Source: an uncultured delta proteobacterium (GTDB taxonomy: Bacteria; Myxococcota_A; Polyangia; Palsa-1104). Taken from it: 64,000 bases of DNA. Position 1 is the stretch's first letter. Each line of letters starts with the position of its first letter. The stretch spans positions 160,001-224,000 of the forward strand of contig CAWAWS010000005.1 in the NCBI GenBank assembly GCA_963785725.1, read 5' to 3'. A model generated the notes under the pieces. The model saw only the letters and a program-made list of their open reading frames with translations. It made no database searches and was not told where the DNA came from. The position numbers were made by a program, and so were the translations under genes. Shown in pieces: positions 1,957 to 16,780 of this stretch.

Positions 1957-2409
1957 ATGATGCGGCATTCGTTCCGAGCGGCGCTCGCAGTGGCAGCGGT
2001 CGCGGCGCTCTCGACGGGCGCGCGGGCCGAGCCGACGGCGATCGGCAAGGCCAAGATCGTGAACGGCAAGGTGACCATCATCCGCGGCGCCAACAAGCTC
2101 GCGGTGAAAGTGGCCGACGCCATCAACGAGCACGATGTCTTCGAGACCGGGCCCGACGGCAGCGTCGGCATCACCTTCACCGACAACACGTCGTTCTCGA
2201 TCGGGCCCAACAGCCGCGTCGCCATCGACACCTACTTCTTCGATCCCAAGAACTTGAAGGGCAACCTCTTGGCGCAGCTCAAGAAGGGGACGATGATGGT
2301 GCGCTCGGGCGAGCTGACGCGACAGCAGCCGGGCTCGGTGCAGGTCAAGACGCCACGAACCGTGCTCGGCGTGCGCGGCACGACCTTCGTCGTCTCTGTT
2401 GACGAATAG
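1957..2409 (+). CDS. Stand-alone secreted FecR-domain protein
   Basis: Signal peptide followed by the FecR core ETGPDGSVGITFTDNTSFSIGPNS...VKTPRTVLGVRGTTF. Confidence 0.85.
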   Translation: MMRHSFRAALAVAAVAALSTGARAEPTAIGKAKIVNGKVTIIRGANKLAVKVADAINEHDVFETGPDGSVGITFTDNTSFSIGPNSRVAIDTYFFDPKNLKGNLLAQLKKGTMMVRSGELTRQQPGSVQVKTPRTVLGVRGTTFVVSVDE

Positions 2410-2414
2410 GCCCT

Positions 2415-5093
2415 GTGCTTCGCGCGCCTCGGTTCGGCTGGCCTCTGTGCATCGGTCTCGGCCTCGCGTGCGCGGTCGCGCGGCTGCCGTCGGCCGGCGC
2501 GCAGTCGGCGGGCTATCAGCTCAACCGCTACGAGCCGACGCCGGCCGGTGATCCGTTTACGCTCGTCGAGTATCCCTGGTACTCGGCGACGCGCTGGTTC
2601 GCCGGCGGGCTGACGCTCGACTATGCGCACCAACTGCTCGTCGCGCACGGCGCGCCGGCGCCGATCGCCAATCAGCTCGACGGACACCTCGACCTCGCCG
2701 GCTCGCTGTTCGATCGCGTCGCCGTGACGCTGAGCGTGCCGATGGTGCTGTACGAAGGCGGCACCGCCTTCAACGGCATCGGGCCGACCGGCGCCGTCGC
2801 CGGCAATCCGCGGCTCGGCGTGCGCGCGCGCCTCGTCGGCCAGCCCGACTCGCGCGTCTCGCTGAGCGCCAGCGCCTATCTCTGGATCCCCGTTGGCGAG
2901 CAGCACAACTTGGCCGGCGACGCGGGCGTGCGCTTCATGCCGCGGCTCAGTCTCGGCGGGCTCATGCTCGCGCAGCTGCCGTGGCAGCTGCGCTGGGCGG
3001 TCAACGCCGCGTTCCTCTATCGCGGGACGGCGCGGGTGGCGACCAGCGTCTCGCCGGTCGGCAACACGGTCGGCTCCGAGCTGCAGCTCTCGGCCGGCCT
3101 CAGCTTCGTGGCGCTCGAGCGCCGCTTCAGCATCGGTCCCGAGGCGCTCTTGTCGATCGCAGTGGCCGGCGATCTGCCGAGCGGACAGCAGCTGGCGACG
3201 CTGGAGCTGCTCGGCGCCGCGCACTATCTGGTGGCCGACACGGTGCAGCTCGGGCTCGGCATCGGCGGCGGCGTGGCCGGTGCGCCCGGTCCGCCCGACC
3301 TCCGCTTCATCTTCTCGCTCGCCTATGCGCCGCTGCGCCGGCGGACCTCGACGTTCGAGCGGGTGGTCGTGCTGCCCGACGAAGACGGTCACGTGGGCGG
3401 CGTCGTCGTCGACGACGGCAAAGCGCGCACGGTGCTCGACCAGGCTTACGCCGCGACGGAGATCGGCAGAAAGGACAAGCGCGCGCGGGCGGTGCAGAGC
3501 TCGGCGCAGGCGCTGCCGCCGGGCGTGGCGGCGTTGGCGCGCGCGCTGCCGCCGTCCGATCGCGACGGCGACGGCATCGTCGACGCGCAGGACGCCTGCC
3601 CCGATCGCGCCGGCGTGGCCTCGGCCGATCCGATTCGCCACGGCTGCCCCAAAGCGTCGGAGAAGGTGGTCGTGCTGCCCGACGCCGATGGACACGTGGG
3701 CGGCGTCGAGGTCGATGACGGCCGGACGAAGACGCTCATCGATCGGCCTTACGCCGGCGTCGAGGTCGGCGCCGACGGCCACGCGCAGGCGGTGGCGCCG
3801 CCGCCGGCCAAAGCCGTGGCTCGCTCGGTCGCGGCCGTCGCCGGCGCGCTGCCGCCGCCCGATGCCGACGACGACGGCGTGCGCGACAACGAGGACGCCT
3901 GCCCCGACCGCGCCGGCGTCGCCTCCGACGATCCCTTGCGCAACGGCTGCCCGGCGGCGCTCGAGCGGATGGTGGTGCTGCCCGATCCCGATGGGCACGT
4001 CGGCGGCGTCGAGGTCGACGACGGCAAGCGGCGCACGCTCGTCGATCAGCCCTACGCCAGCGCCGAGGTCGGCGGCGATGGCCACGTGCGCGCCGTGCCG
4101 CCTTCGCTGCGGTCGGCGGTCGAGCGCTCGGTGGCGGCCATCGCGCGTACGCTGCCGGCCGCCGACGATGACGCCGACGGCATCGCCGACGCCGACGATG
4201 CCTGCCCGGGTCGCGCCGGCGTCGCCGCGCCCGACGCCCTGCGCAACGGCTGCCCGAGCGTGCGCGAGCGCGTCATCGTCCTGCCCGACGCCGACGGGCA
4301 CGTCGGCGGCGTCGAAGTCGACGATGGCCAGTCGAAGACCGTGCTCGATCGCGCCTACGCGACCGCCGAGGTCGGCGCCGACGGGCGCGCGCAGCTGGCG
4401 CCGACCTCGCCGGTGTACGCCGTGACGCGGTCGATCCGCGCCATCGCCACGACGATGCCGCCGCCCGACCGCGACGACGACGGCGTCGCCGATCAAGACG
4501 ACGCCTGCCCCGATCGCGCCGGCGCGCCCAGCGCCGACTCCCTCCGCAGCGGCTGCCCGCGCACCGTCGAGCAGGTGGTCGTATTGCCCGACGAAGACGG
4601 CCACGTCGGCGGCGTCGAGGTCGATGACGGCCACGGCAAGACGCTGCTCGCCGAGGCCTACGCCACGTCCGAGACCGGCAGCGACGGCCGCGCCCGCGGC
4701 TTGAAGACGCTGCCGGCCGAGGTGGCGAAGACCTTCGCGCAGGCGATGGCCGCGCAGCCGCCGGGCGCGCGCCTCATCATCTACTTCGACAAGCGCGCCG
4801 AGCCGGTGCGCGACTTGACCGGCCCCATCGCCAACGTCGTCGCCGAGGTCAAGGCGCGCGCCACCTATTCGATCGACGTCGTCGGCCACACCGACGAGCG
4901 CGGCTCGCGCGCCGCCAATCAGCGCATCGGCCTCGAGCGCGCGCAGCTCATCGCCGACCGCCTGATCGCGGCCGGCGTTCCCGTCGAGCGCGTGCACGTC
5001 ATCTCCAAGGGAATGACCGAGCCGTCGGTGTCGGTGAAGAAGAAGAGCGTCGCCGAATTCCGCAACCGCCGCGTCGAAGTCTTCGTTCGTTAG
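2415..5093 (+). CDS. OmpA-family outer membrane protein: N-terminal beta-barrel-like region, five tandem modules with TSP3-like Ca-binding motifs, C-terminal OmpA_C domain
   Basis: C-terminal GHTDERGSRAANQRIGLERA...RNRRVEVFVR; DxDxDGxxDxxDxCP motifs; repeated VVVLPDxDGHVGGVEVDDG. Confidence 0.9.
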   Translation: MLRAPRFGWPLCIGLGLACAVARLPSAGAQSAGYQLNRYEPTPAGDPFTLVEYPWYSATRWFAGGLTLDYAHQLLVAHGAPAPIANQLDGHLDLAGSLFDRVAVTLSVPMVLYEGGTAFNGIGPTGAVAGNPRLGVRARLVGQPDSRVSLSASAYLWIPVGEQHNLAGDAGVRFMPRLSLGGLMLAQLPWQLRWAVNAAFLYRGTARVATSVSPVGNTVGSELQLSAGLSFVALERRFSIGPEALLSIAVAGDLPSGQQLATLELLGAAHYLVADTVQLGLGIGGGVAGAPGPPDLRFIFSLAYAPLRRRTSTFERVVVLPDEDGHVGGVVVDDGKARTVLDQAYAATEIGRKDKRARAVQSSAQALPPGVAALARALPPSDRDGDGIVDAQDACPDRAGVASADPIRHGCPKASEKVVVLPDADGHVGGVEVDDGRTKTLIDRPYAGVEVGADGHAQAVAPPPAKAVARSVAAVAGALPPPDADDDGVRDNEDACPDRAGVASDDPLRNGCPAALERMVVLPDPDGHVGGVEVDDGKRRTLVDQPYASAEVGGDGHVRAVPPSLRSAVERSVAAIARTLPAADDDADGIADADDACPGRAGVAAPDALRNGCPSVRERVIVLPDADGHVGGVEVDDGQSKTVLDRAYATAEVGADGRAQLAPTSPVYAVTRSIRAIATTMPPPDRDDDGVADQDDACPDRAGAPSADSLRSGCPRTVEQVVVLPDEDGHVGGVEVDDGHGKTLLAEAYATSETGSDGRARGLKTLPAEVAKTFAQAMAAQPPGARLIIYFDKRAEPVRDLTGPIANVVAEVKARATYSIDVVGHTDERGSRAANQRIGLERAQLIADRLIAAGVPVERVHVISKGMTEPSVSVKKKSVAEFRNRRVEVFVR
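3363..4760 (+). repeat. Intragenic tandem repeat, 303-bp (101-aa) period, 4 full copies plus 1 partial
   Basis: The VVVLPD module starts at 3363, 3666, 3969, 4272 and 4575, exactly 303 bp apart. Confidence 0.95.
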
Positions 5094-5097
5094 CGCC

Positions 5098-6504
5098 TTA
5101 GTGGTCGGAGCCGCCTTGCAGCTCGGACAGCCGCGCGTCGTGCTCGAGGAAGCGGTCGGCGAGCGCCTTGACGAACTGCCCCAAGAACGAGCTGCGCACC
5201 AGCTCCTCCAGCGCGTGACGCTCGACGACGACGGCGCTGACCTCGTCGATGGCGATGACGCTGGCCGAGCGCGGCGCGTCGGCGAAGATGGCCGTCTCGC
5301 CGAACACCTGCCCCGCTTCCAGCGTTCGCACCGTCACCGTGCGCGTCGGATCGGCGGCGTCGCGCTTGCGCACCTCGCAGCGGCCGCCGGTGATGATGAA
5401 GGCGGCGCGCGCCGGCTCGCCCTCGGCCACGATCACCTCGCCCGCGTGGAACTTCTGCATCGCGAACCAGTTGCCGCCGCGCAAGAACGCGCGCAGCTCT
5501 TCGGCCAGCTCCTCGACCGTTTGATGACGCTTGTTCGGGTCGGCCTCCATCGCCTTCATGGCGATGCGGCTCAGCTTCGGCGGCGGCTTGATGGCGACGC
5601 CGGTGCTCTCCTCGGGCGGCTTGAGCTGCCGGCGCTGCGCCAGCGGCAGCGCCTCCGGCACCGGGCCCGGATAAGGCGGCGAGCCGGTCAACATCTTGTA
5701 GAGGATGCCGCCGATCGCGAACACGTCGGTGCGCTGATCGATCTGCTGGATGTGACCCCAGGCCTGCTCGGGCGCCATGTACTGCACGGTGCCGATGACG
5801 GTGCCTTCGGGATCGGCGCGGCGCGGAATCTGCGAGCGGTGGCCGGCGCACACGTGCGCGCAGCCCCAGTCCATGACGTAGACCTGACCGAAGCCGCCGA
5901 CCATGATGTTGTCGGGCTTCAAGTCGCGATGAATGATGCCGCGGCTGTGCGCGAAGGCCATGGCGTCGCAGACCTTGACCAGGATCTCGAGCAGCCGCTC
6001 GAGGTCGCGCTGCGTCTTCTGCGCGGCGATGAGGCGCGTCAGCGTCTCGCCGTCGACCAGCTTCATCGTGAAGTAGCTGGGCACGCCGCGCGCGTCGAGC
6101 ACCAGCTCGTGCACGGGGACGATGTTGGGGTGGTCGAGCTGCCCGGTGATGCGCGCCTCGTCGAGAAAGCGCTCTTTGGAGTCCGGCTGCGCCGCCAGCT
6201 CGTTGTCGAGCACCTTCATGGCGATGTGGCGCAAGAGCTCGGTGTCGTAGAGGCGGCGAATCGAGCCCATGCCGCCGCGCGCGATCTCGCCCTCGTCGCG
6301 CAGGCGATCTTTGCCGCGCAAGGACGGCGGCGCCGCGGCCGGCGTCGGCGGCGGACCGGCGCCCTCGGCGCGCTCCGACTCCCAGGTGTCCACCGAGCCT
6401 TCGAACCAGGGGACATCGCTGGCCTCGTCGTCGACGGCGGAGCTGGGCTTGGCGCGCTGCAGACGGCCGACGGCGGTGACCGGATCATCGTGGCTCATAG
6501 ACAC
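5098..6504 (-). CDS. Hanks-type Ser/Thr protein kinase with C-terminal cyclic nucleotide-binding domain
   Basis: IARGGMG, IAMK, HRDLKPDN, DWG and GTVQYMAPE kinase motifs; C-terminal GEVIVAEGE...GQVFGETAIFADAPRSASV cNMP cassette. Confidence 0.92.
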   Translation of the reverse strand: MSMSHDDPVTAVGRLQRAKPSSAVDDEASDVPWFEGSVDTWESERAEGAGPPPTPAAAPPSLRGKDRLRDEGEIARGGMGSIRRLYDTELLRHIAMKVLDNELAAQPDSKERFLDEARITGQLDHPNIVPVHELVLDARGVPSYFTMKLVDGETLTRLIAAQKTQRDLERLLEILVKVCDAMAFAHSRGIIHRDLKPDNIMVGGFGQVYVMDWGCAHVCAGHRSQIPRRADPEGTVIGTVQYMAPEQAWGHIQQIDQRTDVFAIGGILYKMLTGSPPYPGPVPEALPLAQRRQLKPPEESTGVAIKPPPKLSRIAMKAMEADPNKRHQTVEELAEELRAFLRGGNWFAMQKFHAGEVIVAEGEPARAAFIITGGRCEVRKRDAADPTRTVTVRTLEAGQVFGETAIFADAPRSASVIAIDEVSAVVVERHALEELVRSSFLGQFVKALADRFLEHDARLSELQGGSDH

Positions 6505-6628
6505 TCCCGGTCGTCATCATACCCTCGCCGCGATTGACAGGTCCATAGCGCCGCTTCTACGATGAGAACGCCGTCGGCATCGGCCGGGAGTCATTCGTGC
6601 GTCTGGGGACGAGAGCGTTCGAGCGCTG

Positions 6629-9082
6629 ATGGGCAACCGCCGCGTCTGGCTCGTGCAACTGCCGCTGGTGCTGGTGTGGACGCTGGCGTTCACGATCGCG
6701 CAGCGCGGCGACGAGCGGACGCTGACGAGCCCGCTGCTGCGCGATCGCGTCTATCGGACGCTGCGCATGATGGAGGGCTTCGCCACCGACCTGAAGTTTC
6801 GCCTGCGCGGGCCGCGGCCGCTGACGCCCAAGATCGTGATGGTCGAGATCGACGAAGACGCCATCAACCAAGTCGGCCGCTGGCCCTGGCACCGCGACGC
6901 GATGGCGGTCCTCATTCAGTCGGCGTTCGACGCCGGCGCGCGCGTCGTCGGGCTCGACATCGTCTTCTCCGAGCCCGACGTGCGCGTGCCCGAAGCGGTC
7001 GGTGAGCTCTTGCGCGGGCACGGCCTCGGCGACCAGATCCCGGCGTTCGAGACCGATCTGACGTTACAGCGCATCATCGCGCTCCATCGCGATCGGCTCG
7101 TGCTCGGCTGGATGAGCGACGACGCCTGCGTGCCCGCCTGGGAACATTGCGATCCGATGCTGGCGCTGCCCAAAGGCTTCGAGAAGTTCGCCTACGGCCA
7201 CCTGAGCGGCACGTTTCGTCAGGACGGGACGGCGCTCGTGACCGTCCCCACCATCACCGCCAACATCGACGGCTTCGACGAGGCGGCCGCGCACTCGGGC
7301 TACTTCCAAGGCTGGCCCGATCCCGACGACGTGACGCGCCGGACCTTCTTGGCCGTCACCGCGAACGGGCACCTCTTTCCGTCGCTGCCTCTCGAGATGG
7401 CGCGCGTCGGCCTCGACGACGAGCTCGGCGCCGACCTCGACGGCCGCGGCGAGATCGCCAGCCTCTCGCTCTTGCGCGCGGGGCGGCGCCTGCCGGTCTC
7501 GAAGCACGGCGTCCTGCCGATCAACTTCCTCGGGCCCGGCTATCAAGAAGGCGCGTTTCCGTGGGTGCCGGCGATGCAGCTCATCGGCGACGCCGAGCGC
7601 ATCCAGTTCGTGCGCAAGCACAAGGTGGAGTCGGTGGCGCGCTCGGCGCTGTTTCAGGACGCCTACGTCTTCATCGGCTTGTCGGCGCAGGGTGTGAACG
7701 ATCTGCGTAACTTTCCCTTCGCCTCGCACGGGCCCGGCGTCGAAGGCCACGCGACGGTCTTGGAGAACATCCTGTCGCAGCAGTTCCTGCGCACCGGCGC
7801 CGGGCTCTGCGATGGACGGCTGGTGCTGGCGCTGATGACGCTGGGCGCGCTCCTGTTCGGCTGGGCGATGGTGCGGCTGGCGGCGCTGCCGGCGCTCTTG
7901 CTGTCGGTCGCGGTCATCGGTGCGCTGGCGGTCGTGGACGTGGCGCTGTTCAGCCGGCGCAACATCGATCTCGACTCCGTCTTCCTCTTCGGCGAGCTGA
8001 CGACGCTCTTCGTGGCGACGCTGGCGGTGAAGTACGTCCAAGAGGAGCGCGGCAAGCAGCTCATCCGCGGCACCTTCTCGAAGTACCTCGCGCCCGCCGT
8101 CGTCGACGAGATGCTCAAGGACCCGGGCAACGTCAAGCTGGGCGGCGAGACGCGCAAGCTGACCATCATGATGTCCGATCTGCGCGGCTTCACCGCCACC
8201 GCCGAGCGCCTGCGGCCGGAACAGGTGCTGGGCCTGCTCAACAATTACTTGGGGACGATGGCGGACATCATCGTCGACCATCAAGGCACGATCGACGAGT
8301 TCATCGGCGACGCCATCCTCGTCATCTTCGGTGCGCCGCTGGCGCGCGCCGACGACGCGCGCCGCGCCGTGGCCTGCGCGGTGGCGATGCAGCGGGCGAT
8401 GAAGGGCATCAACGAGCACAACGCGCGGCTCGGGCTGCCGGCGATCGAGATGGGCGTCGCGCTCAACACCGGCGAGGTCATCGTCGGCAACATCGGCTCG
8501 CAGCAGCACATCAAGTACGGCGTCGTCGGCAGCCACGTGAACCTGACGGCGCGCATCGAGTCCAACACCGTCGGCGGGCAGGTGCTGATCTCGGGCACGA
8601 CGCTGGCGTTGGCGGGCGCCGACCTCGTGCTCGGCGACCAGCAGCTGATCGTCGCCAAGGGCTTTCCGCAGCCGATTCCGGCGTTCGAGGTCCGTGGCAT
8701 CGGCGGCGAGTACGACCTCATGCTCGACGAGGTGGACCTGGCGCTGGTGACGCTCGAACGCCCGCTCGACGTGCGCTACCGGCTCGTCATGAGCAAGAAC
8801 GAGGAAGGGCCGGAAGCGGTCGGACAGCTGCGCGCGCTGTCCGCCAAGGGCGCCGTGCTCGCCGGCGACGGCGCGCTCGACGCCTTCGCCAACCTCAAGC
8901 TCACGATGGTGGCGCCCACCGGTGTCGCCATCGAGGGCGCGCTCTACGCCAAAGTCGTCGCCGGCGGCGCGGCGTGCACGCTGCGCTTCACGGCGGTGCC
9001 GCCGGAGGTCGAGCGCTTCGTCGCGCAGCAGCTCGAGCCGGCGACGCCCGAGCGTTCGAGCGAGCTGGCCGGACGCTCCTGA
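6629..9082 (+). CDS. CHASE2-domain membrane class III nucleotidyl cyclase, probably guanylyl (Cya2-like), with C-terminal PilZ-like beta domain
   Basis: CHASE2 motifs (IDEDAINQVGRWPWHR, GLDIVFSE, PGVEGHA), TM helices, catalytic motifs SDLRGFT, IDEFIGDA, KYGVVGSHVNLTARIE. Confidence 0.9.
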   Translation: MGNRRVWLVQLPLVLVWTLAFTIAQRGDERTLTSPLLRDRVYRTLRMMEGFATDLKFRLRGPRPLTPKIVMVEIDEDAINQVGRWPWHRDAMAVLIQSAFDAGARVVGLDIVFSEPDVRVPEAVGELLRGHGLGDQIPAFETDLTLQRIIALHRDRLVLGWMSDDACVPAWEHCDPMLALPKGFEKFAYGHLSGTFRQDGTALVTVPTITANIDGFDEAAAHSGYFQGWPDPDDVTRRTFLAVTANGHLFPSLPLEMARVGLDDELGADLDGRGEIASLSLLRAGRRLPVSKHGVLPINFLGPGYQEGAFPWVPAMQLIGDAERIQFVRKHKVESVARSALFQDAYVFIGLSAQGVNDLRNFPFASHGPGVEGHATVLENILSQQFLRTGAGLCDGRLVLALMTLGALLFGWAMVRLAALPALLLSVAVIGALAVVDVALFSRRNIDLDSVFLFGELTTLFVATLAVKYVQEERGKQLIRGTFSKYLAPAVVDEMLKDPGNVKLGGETRKLTIMMSDLRGFTATAERLRPEQVLGLLNNYLGTMADIIVDHQGTIDEFIGDAILVIFGAPLARADDARRAVACAVAMQRAMKGINEHNARLGLPAIEMGVALNTGEVIVGNIGSQQHIKYGVVGSHVNLTARIESNTVGGQVLISGTTLALAGADLVLGDQQLIVAKGFPQPIPAFEVRGIGGEYDLMLDEVDLALVTLERPLDVRYRLVMSKNEEGPEAVGQLRALSAKGAVLAGDGALDAFANLKLTMVAPTGVAIEGALYAKVVAGGAACTLRFTAVPPEVERFVAQQLEPATPERSSELAGRS

Positions 9083-9101: not shown

Positions 9102-9975
9102 TCAGCGGCGAACGAAGCGGCCGAGCGACGGCTGCCACACCTCGACGGCGCCCTCGACGGCGATGGCGACGTTGGCGCAGCCGGCGGCGTGACGCGCGAA
9201 CGCGTCTTCGATGAGCCGATCCGACTGCAGCGGACCGTGATGGCCGGCGAGCACGCGCGTCTGCGGATGGCGCCGCGCCAGCTCGGCCGCGTACTCGATC
9301 GAATCCGTGCCCGAAGGTGTGCTGCGCGACGTCGCTGTGGTTGGCGTCGACGATGACGAGCTGCGCGGTCGCGACCACGGCGTCCTCCAGCGCGCGCGTC
9401 GCCGCCGTCGGCTCGTGATCACTCAGGTAGGCGACGGTCGGGCCGTCGGTGACGGCCAGCCGATAGCCGAGCGTGTCGAGGTAGCGCCGGTTGGGCTCGA
9501 GGCCGCTGTAGTGGTGGAGCGCCACGGTCTCGAGCGTCGCGCCCGGCAACGCCACGCTCGCGCCGGCCGCGAGCGCGACGAACGACAGGCGTCGCAGCGT
9601 GCCCAGCGCCAGCACCTCGAGCGGGACGAACGCCGGCGGCGCGTGCCCGGCGGCAATCGTGTCGAGCGCCTCTTGCGGGCCGAGCACCGTCAACTCGAGG
9701 CCGTTGTCGCGGCGCCACATCCACTCGGCGTCCTTGAGCCCTTCCCAATGATCGAGGTGCGCGTGCGTAACGAGCACGTGCAGTCGCTCGATCGCGCGCA
9801 GGCGCTCGTCGCCGGCGAGCGCGGCGGCGAGCGCGCCCAGGCCGCGACCGGCGTCGAAGACGAAGAGGTCGGCGCCGACCGCCAGCGAGTAGCACGACGT
9901 CGCGTTGCCGATCCGCGAATGCCACGTGTTGCGGCCGCCGCGACAACCCCAAATGTGCAGCTGCGTCTCGTTCAC
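9102..9975 (-). CDS. MBL-fold metallo-hydrolase (candidate cNMP phosphodiesterase); one apparent +1 frameshift near 9302
   Basis: WGCRGG, TSCY, FDAGRG, THAHLDH and YLSDHE motifs. Removing one base in minus-strand GGATTCGATC joins ...HTFGHG to SIEYAAELARRH...GHHGP. Confidence 0.8.
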
Positions 9976-9998
9976 GATGGCGGGCGTGGCCAACGCGC

Positions 9999-10982
9999 TC
10001 AGGCCCAGCCGAGCCGGTTGCGACCGGCGCGCTTGGCGGCGTAAAGGGCTTCGTCGGCGCGCTTCAGGAGCTCGGCGGCGCTCTCGCCGGCGCGGTATTG
10101 CGTGCCGCCCATCGTGGTCGTGATGCGGATGCCGCGGTCGTTGCCGGGATGGGGAAAGCTGCCGATGGCGGCGCGCAGCGTCTCGGCGCGGGTGCGCGCC
10201 TCCGCTTCGTCGAGGTCGGCGAGCAAGAGGATGAACTCGTCGCCGCCGACGCGGCACGGCAAATCGGACTTGCGCACGCCGTCCTGCAAGATGGCGCCGA
10301 CGGCTTTGAGCACGAAGTCGCCGGCGGCGTGACCGAGCGTGTCGTTGACGGGCTTGAAGTGGTCGAGGTCCATCGCGATGAGGACGAGCCCGCCGCCGAT
10401 GGCCCGCGCGCGCTCCATGAAGCCGTGCACCTCGGCGTCGAAGCAGCGGCGGTTGAAGAGGCCGGTGAGCGCGTCGGTGCGCGCCGTCTCCTCCTCTTGC
10501 GTCAGCCGCTTGCGCGTGAACTCGAGGCTCTTGATGGTGTCCTGCAGCTCGACGTTGCGCCGCCGCAGATCGGCGATCAAGTTGCGCTCGGCGTCGACCA
10601 AGAAGGCGCAGGCGCGGCGCAAGAGCGTGAAGATGGCACGCGGATGGGTCGCCAGCAGCGACTGAATGCTCGACTGGTCGACGACCTGCAGGCGCGCCGC
10701 GCTCGTGGCGACGATCGAAATGCTGCGCTGGTGGCCGGGGTTGATGAACGAGAGCTCGCCGAAGTAGCTGCCGGGGCTGTACGTGCGCACGACCTTGCCG
10801 GTGTCGAGGACGGCCTCGGCCTCGCCGGCGACGAGGAAGAACATCGAATCGCCGGGCTCGCCTTGCGTCAGGATGCGCTCGCCGGCCGCGCAGTGGCGCA
10901 GCGCGCCCGCCGCGAAGATGGCGTCGACCTCGTCATCGGTGAAGGCGTGCAACGGGGAATCGGCCGGGAATGCACTACGCAC
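9999..10982 (-). CDS. Diguanylate cyclase with N-terminal cNMP-binding domain (cNMP - coiled coil - GGDEF)
   Basis: QGEPGDSMF...SYFGELSF...QRS cNMP motifs; TDALTGLFNRR, DLDHFKPVNDTLGHAAGD, RKSD I-site, GGDEF. Start is GTG 10982 (TAAAAT 7 nt upstream) or ATG 11021. Confidence 0.92.
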   Translation of the reverse strand: MRSAFPADSPLHAFTDDEVDAIFAAGALRHCAAGERILTQGEPGDSMFFLVAGEAEAVLDTGKVVRTYSPGSYFGELSFINPGHQRSISIVATSAARLQVVDQSSIQSLLATHPRAIFTLLRRACAFLVDAERNLIADLRRRNVELQDTIKSLEFTRKRLTQEEETARTDALTGLFNRRCFDAEVHGFMERARAIGGGLVLIAMDLDHFKPVNDTLGHAAGDFVLKAVGAILQDGVRKSDLPCRVGGDEFILLLADLDEAEARTRAETLRAAIGSFPHPGNDRGIRITTTMGGTQYRAGESAAELLKRADEALYAAKRAGRNRLGWA

Positions 10983-11117
10983 GCGCTCGATTTTAACACC
11001 AATCGCGCGCCGGTGGCTCATCCCGATGGCGCCGGGCCGGGTTTGCCGAGGCGCCATCGCGCCGGGCGCCTGACGGTCTTGCCGTCGGAGCGCACCCGTG
11101 TATACCTTTCGCAAAGC

Positions 11118-11543
11118 ATGGCAGCACTCGGTGAAGTCGGTTCCGTCACGAGCGTGCACTTTCGCGTCAGCACCGCCAATCAGGCCGCTTTCCGCGCGCT
11201 CAGCGGTGACGACAACCCGCTCCATTTCGACGACGCCTTCGCCCGAGCGCGCGGCTTTGCCGGCCCGGTCGTCTATGGTGGGCTCATCGTCGCCGCCATC
11301 TCGCGCCTGCTCGGCAACGAGGTCCCCGGCGCCGGCTGCGTCTGGCACTCGCTCAAGCTCGACTTTCGCGCGCCGCTCTACGTCGACGAGCCGGCCACCG
11401 TGCAGGCGACCTTGACGCACTTTACCGAGGCGCTCGGGCTGTGGCGCCTCGGCCTCGACGTCGCCGTCCCCGGCCGGCGCATCGCCAAGGGCGAGGCCTC
11501 GGCGATGCTGCGCGACACCACCACCCGCGCCACCGCCGAATGA
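11118..11543 (+). CDS. MaoC-like hotdog dehydratase
   Basis: FRALSGDDNPLHFDDAFA...GPVVYGGL hydratase-2 motif. Confidence 0.88.
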   Translation: MAALGEVGSVTSVHFRVSTANQAAFRALSGDDNPLHFDDAFARARGFAGPVVYGGLIVAAISRLLGNEVPGAGCVWHSLKLDFRAPLYVDEPATVQATLTHFTEALGLWRLGLDVAVPGRRIAKGEASAMLRDTTTRATAE

Positions 11544-12202
11544 AAGCGGTCCTCGTCACCGGCGCCGGCGGCGCCATCGGCTCGGCCATCGCCAGCCTAG
11601 CGCGCGCGCGCGGCTGGGCCGTCATCGCCGCGCAGCGCGATCGAGCGGCGACGCTGCAGCTGCCGCTCGACGAGCCCGACCGCTTCGCCGACGTCTTGGC
11701 CACCGTCGATGCGTCGTTGGATGTGGCGGCGCTGGTGCTGTGCGCGTCGCCGCCGCCGCTGGTGTCGTCGTTCACGAAGACGCCGAGCGACGCGCTCGTG
11801 CAGCAGCTCCAAATCAATGTCGTCGCCGCGCATCGCCTGCTGGCCGAGTGCTGGAAGCGCTTTTTCCGGCCGCGCAAAGGCGGCCACGTCGTCGCCTTCT
11901 CGACGGCGGCGCTGGGTCCGCCGCCGACGCCGCACCTGGTCTCGTACTTGGTCGGCAAGGCGGCGGTCGAGGCGCTGGTCGAGGCGGCGCTCGCCGAGCT
12001 CGGCCCGGCCGGGCTGCGCGGCACGGTCATTCGTCCCGGGTTCACCGAGACGCCGATGCTGCGCGCATTTCCGACGCCCATCCTCGACGCCGCGCGCCAG
12101 TCGACGCGCTTTCTGACGCCGGCCGAGGTCGCGGCGGCCACCGTCGACGCGCTCGACCAACCGCCGGCCGAGCCGCTCCTGCGTAGGATTGAGCTGCCAT
12201 GA
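11540..12202 (+). CDS. SDR family oxidoreductase (ketoreductase-like)
   Basis: VTGAGGAIG, YxxxK (YLVGK), PGFTETPM; ATGA overlap with the MaoC gene. Confidence 0.88.
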   Translation: MKAVLVTGAGGAIGSAIASLARARGWAVIAAQRDRAATLQLPLDEPDRFADVLATVDASLDVAALVLCASPPPLVSSFTKTPSDALVQQLQINVVAAHRLLAECWKRFFRPRKGGHVVAFSTAALGPPPTPHLVSYLVGKAAVEALVEAALAELGPAGLRGTVIRPGFTETPMLRAFPTPILDAARQSTRFLTPAEVAAATVDALDQPPAEPLLRRIELP

Positions 12203-14073
12203 AGTGGTTACCCGCGCTCCCCAGCCACGACGCCTTCGCCGAGCTCCGCGCGCACACCAATCCGACGACGCGCCTGGCCGCCATCGTTCGCCTCGCCCAC
12301 TTCGATCTCGATTTTCTGCAGACGGCCAAGCTCGATCGCCTGCTGGAAAAGACCGTGCGCGAGCTCGATGGGCCGGCGCCGCTGCCGAATCTGACGCGCG
12401 TGCGGCTGGCCTGGCTGGCCTCCTCCACCGTCGAGCAGCTGCTGCCGGGCGCGCGCATCGCCGGCTTGCGTCGCGGGCTGTATCTCGACATCCATTTGGC
12501 GCCTTACGGCCAATATCAGCAGGCGCTGCTCGCGGACGAAGGCGCGCTCGTCGACTTTCAGCCCGAGGCGGTGTTCATCCAGCTCGCGCCCGAGGACGCG
12601 CTGCCCGAGCTGCCGCTGGCCGCCACCGCCGCCGAGGCCGCCACCGCCGTCGCCGAGCGCGTGGCCGAGCTGACGCAGCTGTGGTCGCGCGCGCGCGAGC
12701 GCCATCGCGCGCTCGTCATCCACGCCACCGTGCCCAACTTGGCCGAGCGCCTCTTCGGCTCGTACGAGCTGCAGATTCCCGGCGCGCGCTCGAGCCTCAT
12801 CGCGCGCCTCAACCGCGCGCTCGTCGACGCGGCGCCGGCGGCCGGCGCGATCGTGTGCGACCTCGACGGCTGGTTCGCGCGCCTCGGCCACGACGCGTTC
12901 GACCCGGTGCGCTGGTTCCAGGCCAAGCAGCTGGTCGCGCCCGCGCTCGGTCCCTTGTTCGGCGAAGAGCTGGCGCGTCTCGTCGCCGCCGCGCGCGGCC
13001 GCTCACGCAAGGCGCTCGTCCTCGATCTCGACAACACGCTGTGGGGCGGCGTGGTCGGCGATGATGGCGTCGACGGCTTGATCCTCGGTCAAGGCGACGC
13101 CGCCGGCGAAGCGTTCGTCGCCTTCCAGCGCTACGTCAAGCAGCTGGCGACGCGCGGCATCGTGCTCGCCGTCTGCTCCAAGAACAACGCCGACACGGCG
13201 TTGGCGCCCTTTGCCCTCCATCGCGAGATGGTCCTGTCGCGCGACGACATCGCCGTCTTCGTCGCCAACTGGACCGACAAGGCGACCAACCTGCGCACCA
13301 TCGCGGCCACGCTCAACCTCGGGCTCGACGCGCTCGTCTTCGTCGACGACAACCCGGTCGAGCGCGATCAGGTGCGGCGCGAGCTGCCCGAGGTCGCGGT
13401 GCCGGAGATGCCCGAGGATCCGGCCTATTTCGTGCGCACGCTCGCCGCCGCCGGCTACTTCGAGACCGTCGCCTTCTCCGCCGAGGATTGGCAGCGCAGC
13501 GAGCAATATCAGACCAACGCCAAGCGCCAGCGACTGCAAGAAGGCAGCTCCGACATGGACGGCTTTCTGCAGAGCCTGGGCATGACGATGGTGACGTCGC
13601 CGGTCGGCGGCAACAACCTGACGCGCGTCGTCCAGCTCATCAACAAGACCAACCAGTTCAACCTGACGACGCGCCGCTACACCGAGGCCGAGGTCGAGGC
13701 CGTCGCCGGCTCGCCCGACCACATCGCGCGCTGCTTTCGCCTGCGCGATCGCTTCGGCGACAACGGCATCATCTCGGTCGTCATCGCGGCGCGCGAGCAC
13801 GACGCCTGGAACATCGAGACCTGGCTCATGAGCTGCCGCGTCCTCGGCCGTAAAGTCGAGCAGGCGGTGCTGGCCGAGCTGGCGCGCGCGGTGCAATCGC
13901 ACGGCGGCCGCGCGCTCGTCGGCCGCTACCTGCCGACAGCCAAGAACGGGCTCGTCGCCAATCACTACCGAGACTTGGGCTTCCAAAAGGCTGACGCGAC
14001 CGATCAGCGCTGGACGCTCGACCTCGACACCTTCGTCCCCGCCCTCCTACCCATCGAGCTCATCCATGACTGA
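12199..14073 (+). CDS. FkbH-like HAD-IIIC glyceryl transferase/phosphatase
   Basis: LDLDNTLWGGVVGDDG, CSKN, FVDDNPVER, QLINKTNQFNLTT and MSCRVLGR motifs. Confidence 0.93.
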   Translation: MKWLPALPSHDAFAELRAHTNPTTRLAAIVRLAHFDLDFLQTAKLDRLLEKTVRELDGPAPLPNLTRVRLAWLASSTVEQLLPGARIAGLRRGLYLDIHLAPYGQYQQALLADEGALVDFQPEAVFIQLAPEDALPELPLAATAAEAATAVAERVAELTQLWSRARERHRALVIHATVPNLAERLFGSYELQIPGARSSLIARLNRALVDAAPAAGAIVCDLDGWFARLGHDAFDPVRWFQAKQLVAPALGPLFGEELARLVAAARGRSRKALVLDLDNTLWGGVVGDDGVDGLILGQGDAAGEAFVAFQRYVKQLATRGIVLAVCSKNNADTALAPFALHREMVLSRDDIAVFVANWTDKATNLRTIAATLNLGLDALVFVDDNPVERDQVRRELPEVAVPEMPEDPAYFVRTLAAAGYFETVAFSAEDWQRSEQYQTNAKRQRLQEGSSDMDGFLQSLGMTMVTSPVGGNNLTRVVQLINKTNQFNLTTRRYTEAEVEAVAGSPDHIARCFRLRDRFGDNGIISVVIAAREHDAWNIETWLMSCRVLGRKVEQAVLAELARAVQSHGGRALVGRYLPTAKNGLVANHYRDLGFQKADATDQRWTLDLDTFVPALLPIELIHD

Positions 14074-14308
14074 ACCCGAGATTTACGCGGTTTTACAGAC
14101 GCTCTTCCACGACATCTTCGACGACGAGTCGATCACGCTCACGCCCACGACCAGCGCCAAAGACATCGCCGAGTGGGACTCGTTCAACCACGTCAACATC
14201 ATCGTCGGCGCCGAGACCAAGTTCAAAATCAAGTTCACCACGTCGGAGATCGGCGGCCTCAAGAACGTGGGTGACTTCGTGCACCTCATCGCCCGAAAAA
14301 CCGCGTAG
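14066..14308 (+). CDS. Acyl carrier protein
   Basis: 80 aa, DIAEWDSFNHVN phosphopantetheine Ser motif; overlaps the FkbH gene. Confidence 0.92.
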   Translation: MTEPEIYAVLQTLFHDIFDDESITLTPTTSAKDIAEWDSFNHVNIIVGAETKFKIKFTTSEIGGLKNVGDFVHLIARKTA

Positions 14309-15801
14309 TGCTCTTCAATTCCTACACCTTCCTGTTCCTGTTTCTGCCGATCACGCTGGCGTTGGTGCTGGGCGCGAGCGCGCTCGGCTTGCGGCGCACG
14401 GCCAAAGTGTCGCTGCTCGTGGCGTCGCTGTTCTTCTACGGCTGGGCCAACCCGCGCTACCTGATCGTGCTCGGCGCGCTCGTCGCCTTCAACTACGGCA
14501 TCTGCCGCCTGCTCATGGCCGACGCCGGCGACGACGGCCGCCGCAAGGCCGTCTTCATCCTCGGCGTCGTCGCCAACGTCGCCACGCTGGCCTACTTCAA
14601 GTACACCAACTTCACCGTCACCACCGTCGACGAGCTCTTCGGCTGGCAGCTGCGGGTGGCGCGCATCGCGCTGCCGCTCGGCCTGTCGTTCATCACGTTC
14701 CAGAAGATCGCGCTCTTGGTCGACGTCTACGATCGCAGCGTCACGTCGTTCGGGCTGCTCGACTACTGCCTGTTCGTGACGTTCTTCCCGCAGCTCATCG
14801 CCGGTCCCATCGTCCATCACCGCGAGGTCTTTCCGCAGCTCGCCGACCCGAAGACGCTGCATTACTCGGCCGACGGCTTCGCGGCCGGCATCGCGCTCTT
14901 TTGCATCGGCTTCTTCAAGAAGGCCATGCTCGCCGACAGCGTCGCGAGCTTGGCCGGCCGCGTCTTCGACGGCGCCGCGCACGGCCAGCACCAAGGCGCG
15001 CCGATGCTCTGGCTCGGCGCCGTCGCCTACACGCTGCAGCTCTATTTCGACTTCTCGGGCTACTGCGACATGGCCATCGGGCTCGGCCGGCTGTTCGGCA
15101 TCCGCCTGCCCATCAACTTCGACTCGCCCTTCAAGGCCACCAACATCATCGACTTCTGGCGTCGCTGGCACATGACGCTGACGCGCTTTTTGACCGCCTG
15201 CATCTACAACCCGATCTTGCTCGCCATCAATCGCCGTCGCGCCGCCCAAGGTCTGTCGAGCGGCCGCCGCGGCATGACGCTGCCGGCGTTTACGCAGCTC
15301 GTGGTCCTGCCGACGATGGTGACGATGTGCATCGCCGGCATTTGGCACGGCGCCGGCTTCCAGTTCGCCGTCTTCGGCGCGCTGCACGGCCTGTACCTCG
15401 TGTGCAACCACGCCTGGCGCACGTTCGGCAAGAAGCGCAAAGCCTCGCCTCGCTTCGACATCCCCAAGACCGCCGGCACCTTCCTGCTCGTGGTCGTGGC
15501 GTTCGTCTTCTTCCGCGCCGACTCGGTGCACACGGCGCTGCGCATGCTCGGCGAGATGACCGGGCTGCACGGTCCCAACCCGCGCCCGCAGCTGACGTCG
15601 ATCGCCGGCACGGTGGTGCTGGCGGCGATCGCCTTCGCCGCGCCCAACTCCAACCGCGTCGTCGACGGCGCGGCCGGCGAGGCGAGCCGCTGGTGGGACT
15701 TCCGCCCGTCGCTGGCGTGGGGCTTGTGCATCGGCGCCATCGCGCTGGCGGCGATGCTGCAGCTCGACGCCTCCACCGAGTTTCTCTACTTCAATTTTTG
15801 A
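14308..15801 (+). CDS. MBOAT family O-acyltransferase (AlgI/DltB-like)
   Basis: MLFNSYTFLFLFLP, LPLGLSFITFQ, FFPQLIAGPI, YFDFSGY, FWRRWHMTL and GIWHGAG motifs. Confidence 0.95.
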   Translation: MLFNSYTFLFLFLPITLALVLGASALGLRRTAKVSLLVASLFFYGWANPRYLIVLGALVAFNYGICRLLMADAGDDGRRKAVFILGVVANVATLAYFKYTNFTVTTVDELFGWQLRVARIALPLGLSFITFQKIALLVDVYDRSVTSFGLLDYCLFVTFFPQLIAGPIVHHREVFPQLADPKTLHYSADGFAAGIALFCIGFFKKAMLADSVASLAGRVFDGAAHGQHQGAPMLWLGAVAYTLQLYFDFSGYCDMAIGLGRLFGIRLPINFDSPFKATNIIDFWRRWHMTLTRFLTACIYNPILLAINRRRAAQGLSSGRRGMTLPAFTQLVVLPTMVTMCIAGIWHGAGFQFAVFGALHGLYLVCNHAWRTFGKKRKASPRFDIPKTAGTFLLVVVAFVFFRADSVHTALRMLGEMTGLHGPNPRPQLTSIAGTVVLAAIAFAAPNSNRVVDGAAGEASRWWDFRPSLAWGLCIGAIALAAMLQLDASTEFLYFNF

Positions 15802-16780
15802 GCAGCTTGAGCGCGCTCAGCGCTTGCGCGAACAGCTCGGTGAACGGCGTCGCGTCGTGCCCGTCGATGTGCGTGCCGTCGGGACAGGCGAACGCCTGCA
15901 TCGCCGGGAAGTCTTGAAACGAGAGGCTGGGGAAGGTCTTTTGAATGAGCGCCCAATAGCGGGCATCGGGAAAGCGCTCCTCCTCGGCGGCCAGGACCGC
16001 CTGCGTCGCCAGCATGCGGAAGAAGATGACGTGGCCGCCGCGCGCGGTGATGGCGGCGACCCAGGCTTGCAGCTGGCTCAGGCGCGCGGCCATCTCGGCG
16101 TCGCTGGCGACGGTGCCGTAGTTGCGCAGCGCATCGGCGAAGAAGCGCTTTTTCTCGGCTAGGTCGGCGAGCGCGAAGCTCATCCGCAGCTGCCGCCGCG
16201 CGTCCATGCGGTAATAGGGCACGGGCGGCGCGCGATGGCGCTCGAGCGCGAAATGCGGGATCGAGGCCATGCCGAGCTCGGGCAAGAGGCTCACGAGCCG
16301 GCTCGAGAACCACGTGCGCACCGACGTCTCCACGCCGTCGAGCGGCGCGCGCGCGTGATACTTCTCGACCCACGTGTTGGTGGCGGTGTTGTCGCTGGTG
16401 AAGAGGTCGGCCGGCAGCACCTCGACGACGAGCGTGCCGTGAAACGTCGGATCCTCGGCGAAGTCGCGCAGCATGCCGAGCAGATGGCCGCTGTTGACCG
16501 ACAGCTGAATGAACTCGCGGCCGGGAAAATGGCGCTCGAGCACGTCGAGATCCATGGCCGCTTGCAGGCGCGACGAGCCGACCAGCGCCACCACGCGCGG
16601 ATCTTTGGAGGCGGCCGCGCGCCACACCGACCACAGCCCGTTGCTGTTGGACACCGAGGGGACGAAACCTTTGGCACGCCAGGTCAATTCCCAGCCGGCC
16701 GCCAGCGTCAGCGCCAGCGCCATCCCCAGGAAAAAGCGCCGCGGCCGCACGCCAACCGGCGCTGAAGAAGGTTCGGCCAT
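15791..16780 (-). CDS. Membrane-anchored SGNH-like protein (DltD/AlgJ-type partner of the MBOAT)
   Basis: N-terminal TM helix, LVGSSR (block I Ser) and C-terminal DGTH (DxxH); convergent with and overlapping the MBOAT gene. Confidence 0.65.
   Translation of the reverse strand: MAEPSSAPVGVRPRRFFLGMALALTLAAGWELTWRAKGFVPSVSNSNGLWSVWRAAASKDPRVVALVGSSRLQAAMDLDVLERHFPGREFIQLSVNSGHLLGMLRDFAEDPTFHGTLVVEVLPADLFTSDNTATNTWVEKYHARAPLDGVETSVRTWFSSRLVSLLPELGMASIPHFALERHRAPPVPYYRMDARRQLRMSFALADLAEKKRFFADALRNYGTVASDAEMAARLSQLQAWVAAITARGGHVIFFRMLATQAVLAAEEERFPDARYWALIQKTFPSLSFQDFPAMQAFACPDGTHIDGHDATPFTELFAQALSALKLLKN

Follow-up and report, generated by a model that had tools for sequence, protein, structure and literature searches.

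The window, by which we mean the whole 64,000-nucleotide stretch of DNA that was analysed, carries a gene that fuses a Ser/Thr kinase to a cyclic nucleotide-binding (CNB) domain. On balance, we consider it probable that the product is a soluble kinase switched on by cGMP, the nucleotide predicted for the CHASE2 cyclase encoded beside it, and that it is a convergent bacterial protein kinase G (PKG) within a Cya2-type cGMP circuit. This reading draws on sequence, and we lean towards cGMP because the CNB domain carries a Leu/Val-Arg pair on strand beta5 and the neighbouring cyclase is of the Cya2 type with a Glu-Gly specificity pair. The cGMP reading is well supported for the clade of the window kinase and unproven for the family as a whole, whose remaining members may respond to cAMP, or to cGMP supplied by a source that went unrecognised. 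The features discussed here are collected in Table 1.

Table 1. Positions of the kinase-CNB gene, its domains and motifs, and the neighbouring genes of the module in the window.
Feature	Position	Strand	Remarks
FecR-domain protein	1957..2409	+	signal-peptide-like N-terminus; start assigned by eye to Met44 of the listed ORF
Outer-membrane protein	2415..5093	+	TraB-like N-terminal region, TSP3 repeats, OmpA domain
Kinase-CNB fusion gene	5098..6498	-	466 aa from ATG 6498; 468 aa from GTG 6504
Long C-terminal helix	5110..5187	-	residues 440-465; matches CRP C-helix region; acidic residues 454 and 456 conserved
CNB domain	5194..5469	-	residues 346-437; joined directly to last kinase helix
Phosphate-binding cassette F401-V416	5257..5304	-	G402, E403, R412, S413; FGE 401-403 and PRSASV 411-416
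beta5 V392-R393	5326..5331	-	equivalent of Plasmodium PKG CNB-D L472-R473 (guanine contacts)
Hanks-type (PknB-like) kinase domain	5479..6303	-	approx. residues 68-342; DWG for DFG; activation segment acidic at 231 and 233 (D/E)
Conserved PWFxG motif	6397..6411	-	low-confidence N-terminal tail (pLDDT ~42-47)
Overlapping divergent sigma70-like promoter matches	6516..6563	.	inside the 130-bp kinase/cyclase gap
Membrane class III cyclase	6629..9082	+	TM, CHASE2, about three TMs, Cya2-like catalytic domain, C-terminal extension
Cyclase specificity pair	E557 at 8297-8299, G631 at 8519-8521	+	Glu-Gly as in Cya2
Metallo-beta-lactamase-fold hydrolase	9102..9978	-	candidate cNMP phosphodiesterase; frame shifted
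CNB-GGDEF diguanylate cyclase	9999..11021	-	GGDEF and RxxD (I-site) intact; CNB with beta5 Val-Arg

We take the kinase-CNB open reading frame to be a real gene because its GC3 is 0.93, compared with 0.70 for the frame on the opposite strand. ATG 6498, which has GGGAG 5 nt upstream, is more likely to be the start than GTG 6504; residue numbers are counted from GTG 6504 throughout. A start at ATG 6498 leaves a gap of 130 bp to the ATG of the cyclase gene, so that the divergent region described in an earlier, sequence-only reading of this DNA stands as a divergent pair, with its length amended from the claimed ~125 bp. Two sigma70-like divergent sites were found between positions 4900 and 9400, against a chance expectation of 0.2 +/- 0.5, and both lie within this gap. 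The divergent partner of the kinase is not constant, and in other genomes a fecR or GGDEF gene is found opposite it. Pfam identified both domains of the protein, Pkinase at residues 71-330 (E 9e-38) and cNMP_binding at residues 350-438 (E 5e-18), bearing out its first description as a soluble Hanks kinase with a C-terminal cNMP-binding domain. The peak 19-residue hydropathy was only 1.12, indicating that, as had been proposed, the protein has no transmembrane (TM) segment; only one of 120 homologues exceeded 1.6.

The kinase domain displays the full set of Hanks-type features, comprising the Gly loop, beta3 Lys, alphaC Glu, HxDxKxxN, DxG, APE, subdomain IX Asp and subdomain XI Arg, and all of the catalytic residues are in place (K97, E116, H192-R-D194, K196, N199, D212, APE246, D260 and R326). 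These residues are invariant in 119-120 of 120 homologues, with the exception of R193 (110/120), and non-RD variants make up 27 of 99 representatives. The catalytic motifs are complete, as first read, with the one correction that the DFG motif is DWG, a substitution found in 120/120 homologues. PknB of M. tuberculosis (1mru, 5u94) is the closest kinase domain by sequence (phmmer 1.7e-43) and by fold (VIA Z 30.4, rmsd 2.4 A over 260), and the same comparison with human PKG gave Z 24.9 and an rmsd of 2.8-3.1 A; the wide fold search used the kinase domain as its sole query. Unlike PknB, the window kinase is soluble, lacks a TM segment and PASTA repeats, has DWG for DFG and an acidic activation segment, and carries a CNB sensor.

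Eukaryotic PKGs, represented by Plasmodium PKG (5dyk) and human PKG I CNB-B (4ku7), similarly combine kinase and CNB in one chain and share with the window kinase the beta5 Leu/Val-Arg and the cassette Arg-Ser/Thr. However, PKG is an AGC kinase with an AGC tail and tandem N-terminal CNBs, whereas the window kinase is of the PknB type with a single C-terminal CNB and a CRP-like C-helix, in which the capping triad was not identified. The kinase-first order, noted from the outset as the reverse of that in eukaryotic PKG, was upheld by Pfam, which placed one CNB C-terminal to the kinase. Likewise, the proximity to PknB, the single C-terminal CNB and the lack of an AGC tail agree with the earlier proposal that the kinase was assembled independently. 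Since a PknB-like kinase domain is joined here to a CRP-like C-terminal part without a helix-turn-helix (HTH), the protein is not a member of the PKG family, yet it likely works like PKG.

We found that the CNB domain has the canonical beta-roll and a G-E...R-(S/T/A) cassette, and that the FGE...PRSASV sequence recognised at first reading is intact. The best PDB matches of the domain are PKGs, and in a gapless alignment V392, R393 and S413 correspond to L472, R473 and T493 of Plasmodium PKG, which the available text of PMC4412288 names as guanine contacts common to human PKG I CNB-B. The part of a second study that we could consult ties cGMP selectivity to beta5 residues (PMC3765643). Position 392, Val in the window kinase, is Leu in 111/117 homologues. 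No PKG-type capping residue over the guanine was identified in the CNB; T404 occupies the position of PfPKG R484, and a conserved aromatic residue at 440 together with the acidic residues 454/456 are candidates for capping.

In the source genome, beta5 Arg was present in only 2 of 18 CNB domains (11 parsed, all 18 read), those of the kinase and of the CNB-GGDEF gene 3.5 kb away (Fisher p 0.0065 for both in one locus). Among background CNBs of five other genomes, where 51 domains were recovered from 40 regions that took in most of the 67 Pfam hits, it was found in 2 of the 41 that were parsed and 1 of the 10 that were read by eye. Two further residues were rejected as markers of cGMP: the Ser after the cassette Arg, which had already been judged not decisive, is common in background CNBs, and the acidic residue 456 has an Asp at the same place in two CRP-like proteins of the source genome as well.

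The best natural match of the cyclase catalytic domain was Synechocystis Cya2 (2w01, 2e-66, ~54% identity by hand count), with which the window protein shares the CHASE2-TM-cyclase-extension layout and the Glu-Gly pair. The metal-binding Asp pair (D517, D561) is intact, N638 and R642 are present, and E557 is Lys in the engineered adenylate-cyclase variant 6fht (E488K). The available text of PMC4215837 gives E-G as the specificity pair of Cya2, states that a Tyr boosts its guanylate cyclase activity and reports equal binding of ATP and GTP. This Tyr, situated before the catalytic Arg, is replaced by Ala641 in the window cyclase and by Ala in all module orthologues read. The window cyclase also differs from Cya2 in adjoining candidate receptors; discovery of the Cya2 receptor was still awaited as of 2023 (PMC10187061). 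Of the 10 class III cyclases in the source genome, 8 were readable by pattern at the specificity position, and Glu was found only in the CHASE2 cyclase, which we predict makes cGMP. The C-terminal extension of this protein (8720-9079, + strand) is 53-68% conserved in orthologues, has no Pfam match and appears PilZ-like by eye; its single-sequence model (pLDDT 54) was too poor for fold comparison.

At least 120 homologues of the kinase-CNB protein were listed, nearly all with Pkinase and CNB and mostly from Myxococcota where named; the L001 orthologue is 79% identical to the window kinase. Of the 150 top representatives at 50% identity, 102 are direct kinase-CNB fusions. Where genome records are named, Myxococcota MAGs predominate, and Paraliomyxa miuraensis is the sole cultured isolate among 80 loci. 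A quick tree built from 99 kinases placed the window kinase in a 12-member clade with support of 100; L008, whose frameshifted kinase was kept outside the tree, was counted with this clade on identity, giving 13 loci from genomes that are kin, so that the counts are not independent. An E-G cyclase lies within 8 kb of the kinase in 8 of the 13 loci, in three gene orders, with a fourth order in the truncated L009, and three clade loci stop at contig edges adjoining fecR or ompA. An E-G cyclase orthologue with 75-77% identity is present in four of the five remaining clade genomes, L015 being the exception, which brings the cyclase to 12/13. The five- to six-gene module (kinase, cyclase, FecR, OmpA-like, phosphodiesterase-like and CNB-GGDEF) recurs in several gene orders, and the link between kinase and cyclase first suggested by their shared promoter region is wider than one promoter. 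The sequence-only reading had called for a search for this architecture beside CHASE2 cyclases; among the 80 loci, the majority do not have the module. Within the family to which the window belongs, 3 of 15 genomes have the kinase, the cyclase and the hydrolase, and in the other 12, some of them incomplete, none of the three was found.

The association of the clade with Glu-Gly cyclases in 12/13 genomes, the occurrence of the rare beta5 Arg in an unrelated effector of the same locus (the CNB-GGDEF enzyme) and the reported ability of Glu or Lys at E488 to switch Cya2 between GTP and ATP (available text of PMC5995499) all argue against the strongest alternative. This holds that the kinase responds to cAMP, or makes no distinction between cAMP and cGMP, as is the case for Clr, with the beta5 Arg being ancestral and the cyclase being dual or an adenylate cyclase. 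We regard it as unlikely, though it has a real claim on attention, as it draws strength from the wider family: beta5 Arg occurs in 69/99 wider representatives, while nine of ten out-of-clade genomes had only Lys-type cyclases among the 37/44 matches read, and a full Pfam scan of four out-of-clade genomes revealed no Glu-type cyclase among 32 matches, a few of which were unreadable. The Arg alone is therefore no proof of a cGMP source. A cAMP or dual reading would also fit the absence of the Cya2 Tyr, the match of the C-terminal helix to CRP-family proteins and the precedent of Clr, described in the available texts as a dual cAMP/cGMP receptor fed by CHASE2 cyclases (PMC10187061, PMC13001267).

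A family-wide link between the kinase and Cya2-like cyclases was not supported by co-occurrence across 151 genomes of the phylum, in which we counted 21 carriers of the kinase-CNB and 16 strong Cya2-like carriers (>=180 bits), with an overlap of two plus the source genome. Of the CNBs near 15 other Cya2-like cyclases, 3/8 had the beta5 Arg. In favour of the cGMP reading, receiver-fused Glu-type cyclases adjoin three distant kinases (L070, L075 and L097), which fall on branches of their own. In a sister clade (L013, L014, L017, L018, L020, L023, L024, L030, L031, L035, L043, L053 and L059) the cassette Arg is followed by Asn, the cassette is altered, and only Lys-type cyclases were found among the matches read in the five genomes checked; the ligand of this clade may differ. 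Paraliomyxa miuraensis (L067 genome; L146 / L158) encodes a kinase-CNB member and, elsewhere in the genome, an E-G cyclase with 59% identity, making it a possible live test system.

An AlphaFold2 model of residues 29-468, built on a 73-sequence alignment, had a pLDDT of 90.9 and a pTM of 0.87. In this model the last kinase helix continues straight into the CNB beta-roll, without a separate N-terminal CNB helix, through a linker with the conserved sequence F-L-R-G-G-N-W-F. The chain ends in a 26-residue helix, a candidate dimer helix, and neither Pfam nor the model placed an HTH after it, so that the protein stops where CRP/FNR transcription factors continue. No solved structure was found to span kinase and CNB (best query TM-score 0.53). 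Within the kinase domain, the activation segment is acidic at position 231 in 118/120 homologues and at position 233 in 107/120, and Thr235 is kept in only 56/120. The fixed acidic residues, the lack of a conserved phospho-Thr pair and the non-RD variants mentioned above suggest that ligand binding to the CNB, rather than phosphorylation of the loop, would set kinase activity. The N-terminal PWFxG motif is well preserved among aligned homologue rows (W in 94/96, F in 88/97) and is a candidate autoinhibitory or docking element.

The same acidic segment could also give a constitutive kinase, and we identified no pseudosubstrate segment, leucine zipper or AGC tail in the protein. Together with the missing N-terminal CNB helix, the acidic segment and the lack of a pseudosubstrate leave some room for the view that nucleotide binding inhibits the kinase or only steers its dimerisation or localisation, or that the CNB is a structural appendage of a constitutive kinase. 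This appears quite improbable to us, as G402, E403, R412 and R393 are invariant in 117/117 homologues, which argues for selected ligand binding, and the conserved linker and the pTM of the model suggest a defined interdomain geometry.

We additionally examined the other genes of the module. Compared with its counterparts in L001 and L008, the hydrolase gene carries a single additional base near 9302-9304, and the resulting frameshift is confined to this assembly; it is likely an assembly error because a near-identical short-read contig (n=1, depth 2.7) lacks the extra base. Atlas neighbours of the hydrolase include clusters with Apyc1 in 16-50% of members. Apyc1 cleaves cyclic mononucleotides; the hydrolase is a phosphodiesterase candidate, and by this analogy it may clear the cyclic nucleotide. 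Its family, which has no curated NCBIfam assignment, tracks Cya2-like cyclases (5/6 carriers, among 31 relatives). The CNB-GGDEF gene recurs in L008, L009, L012 and L159, and alignment of its C-helix to PDB 5h5o gave chance-level matches only. The OmpA-like protein contains four long repeats (3351-4750, + strand), each made of a VVLPD..GHVGG-type unit and a TSP3 calcium-binding repeat.

That the locus is a Pycsar-like anti-phage system using a cyclic pyrimidine, with the kinase as abortive effector, is very improbable: the module is patchy within genus and family, PADLOC gave domain-level matches to PycC and PD-T4-6 kinases and the hydrolase resembles Apyc1-like proteins, but PycC was matched far less strongly (best 2.6e-21) than Cya2, the PD-T4-6 matches fall on the kinase domain, the effector genes encode a kinase and a GGDEF enzyme, with no TIR or membrane effector, and the FecR, OmpA, CHASE2 and GGDEF partners suit envelope signalling.

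In the cGMP circuit that we favour, the FecR and OmpA/TSP3 proteins would pass a signal from the envelope on to the CHASE2 domain, upon which the cyclase would make cGMP. The nucleotide would then bind two parallel readers, the kinase-CNB protein and the CNB-GGDEF enzyme, the latter raising c-di-GMP when occupied, and the metallo-hydrolase would act as off-switch by clearing cGMP. In the kinase, the CNB would be rigidly fused to the C-lobe, and once the cassette and hinge close, the CRP-like C-helix would shift, probably within a dimer, releasing the kinase; the conserved linker, the C-helix and the N-terminal PWFxG motif are candidate transmitters of this movement.

Parts of this circuit have counterparts in known systems. 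In Xanthomonas campestris, the guanylate cyclase XC_0250 is encoded beside XC_0249, a CNB-GGDEF enzyme reported to be stimulated by cGMP and laid out like the window CNB-GGDEF protein; unlike the window cyclase, XC_0250 bears TPRs, and the available text mentions neither CHASE2 nor a kinase effector (PMC3770947). Outer-membrane or FecR input to CHASE2 cyclases has been described in Sinorhizobium, where NsrA feeds CyaD1/CyaD2/CyaK and the cAMP is read by the CRP transcription factor Clr (available text of PMC13001267), and in a Campylobacterota cluster of CHASE2 cyclase, phosphodiesterase and FecR, described as a cAMP system in the part of PMC9239204 that we could consult. They resemble the window in this input and in having a phosphodiesterase in the cluster, but the window differs in its Glu-type cyclase and in having a kinase and a diguanylate cyclase as the predicted readers. 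Bacterial cGMP receptors described in the available texts are the CRP-type transcription factors CgrA and Clr and the diguanylate cyclase XC_0249 (PMC10187061, PMC3770947), and a kinase gated by cGMP, as this one likely is, would be a kind of receptor that we did not find described in bacteria. In the portions available, Kannan 2007 lists 'kinases' among the partners of bacterial CNBs, and a Planctomycetota survey includes CNB among kinase-associated domains. Our literature search found no functional study of a bacterial cNMP-regulated Hanks kinase, and cNMP terms had no match in the main texts of kinase surveys and a signalling survey, whose supplements may catalogue the architecture. A 2008 paper on the myxobacterial kinome reportedly gives domain architectures and may name the kinase-CNB.

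If the cGMP reading is true, a kinase directly gated by cGMP represents a new effector class of bacterial cGMP, the PKG design arose convergently, and one route is revealed by which soluble myxobacterial kinases receive input; the protein might, moreover, be put to use as a small kinase tool that responds to cGMP. The evidence appears evenly poised on a broader account, according to which a myxobacterial protein kinase G evolved independently, with the same guanine-reading residues, a PknB-type kinase and reversed domain order, in a complete envelope-to-cGMP circuit split into phosphorylation and c-di-GMP branches, and in which CNB-first fusions elsewhere in the phylum suggest a repeat origin.

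Such CNB-first kinase fusions, with the domain order of PKG, were observed at L160:9290-10909(-) and L171:9549-11138(+). Both have HRD and DFG motifs, a beta5 Arg and a cassette Arg-Thr, and both directly adjoin a Cya2-like cyclase, which has the E-G pair in L160 and is fused to a kinase, with Asp at the specificity position, in L171; they are possibly a second independent PKG-like design. Clade-level kinases with no module nearby were found on two Rubrivivax-labelled contigs (L015 and L016), reflecting either transfer or mis-binning. Finally, outside the module, a cluster at 11420-16780 encodes an FkbH-domain protein, an acyl carrier-like small ORF and a DltB-like membrane O-acyltransferase, along with ORFs that appear by eye to be short dehydrogenase- and dehydratase-like.
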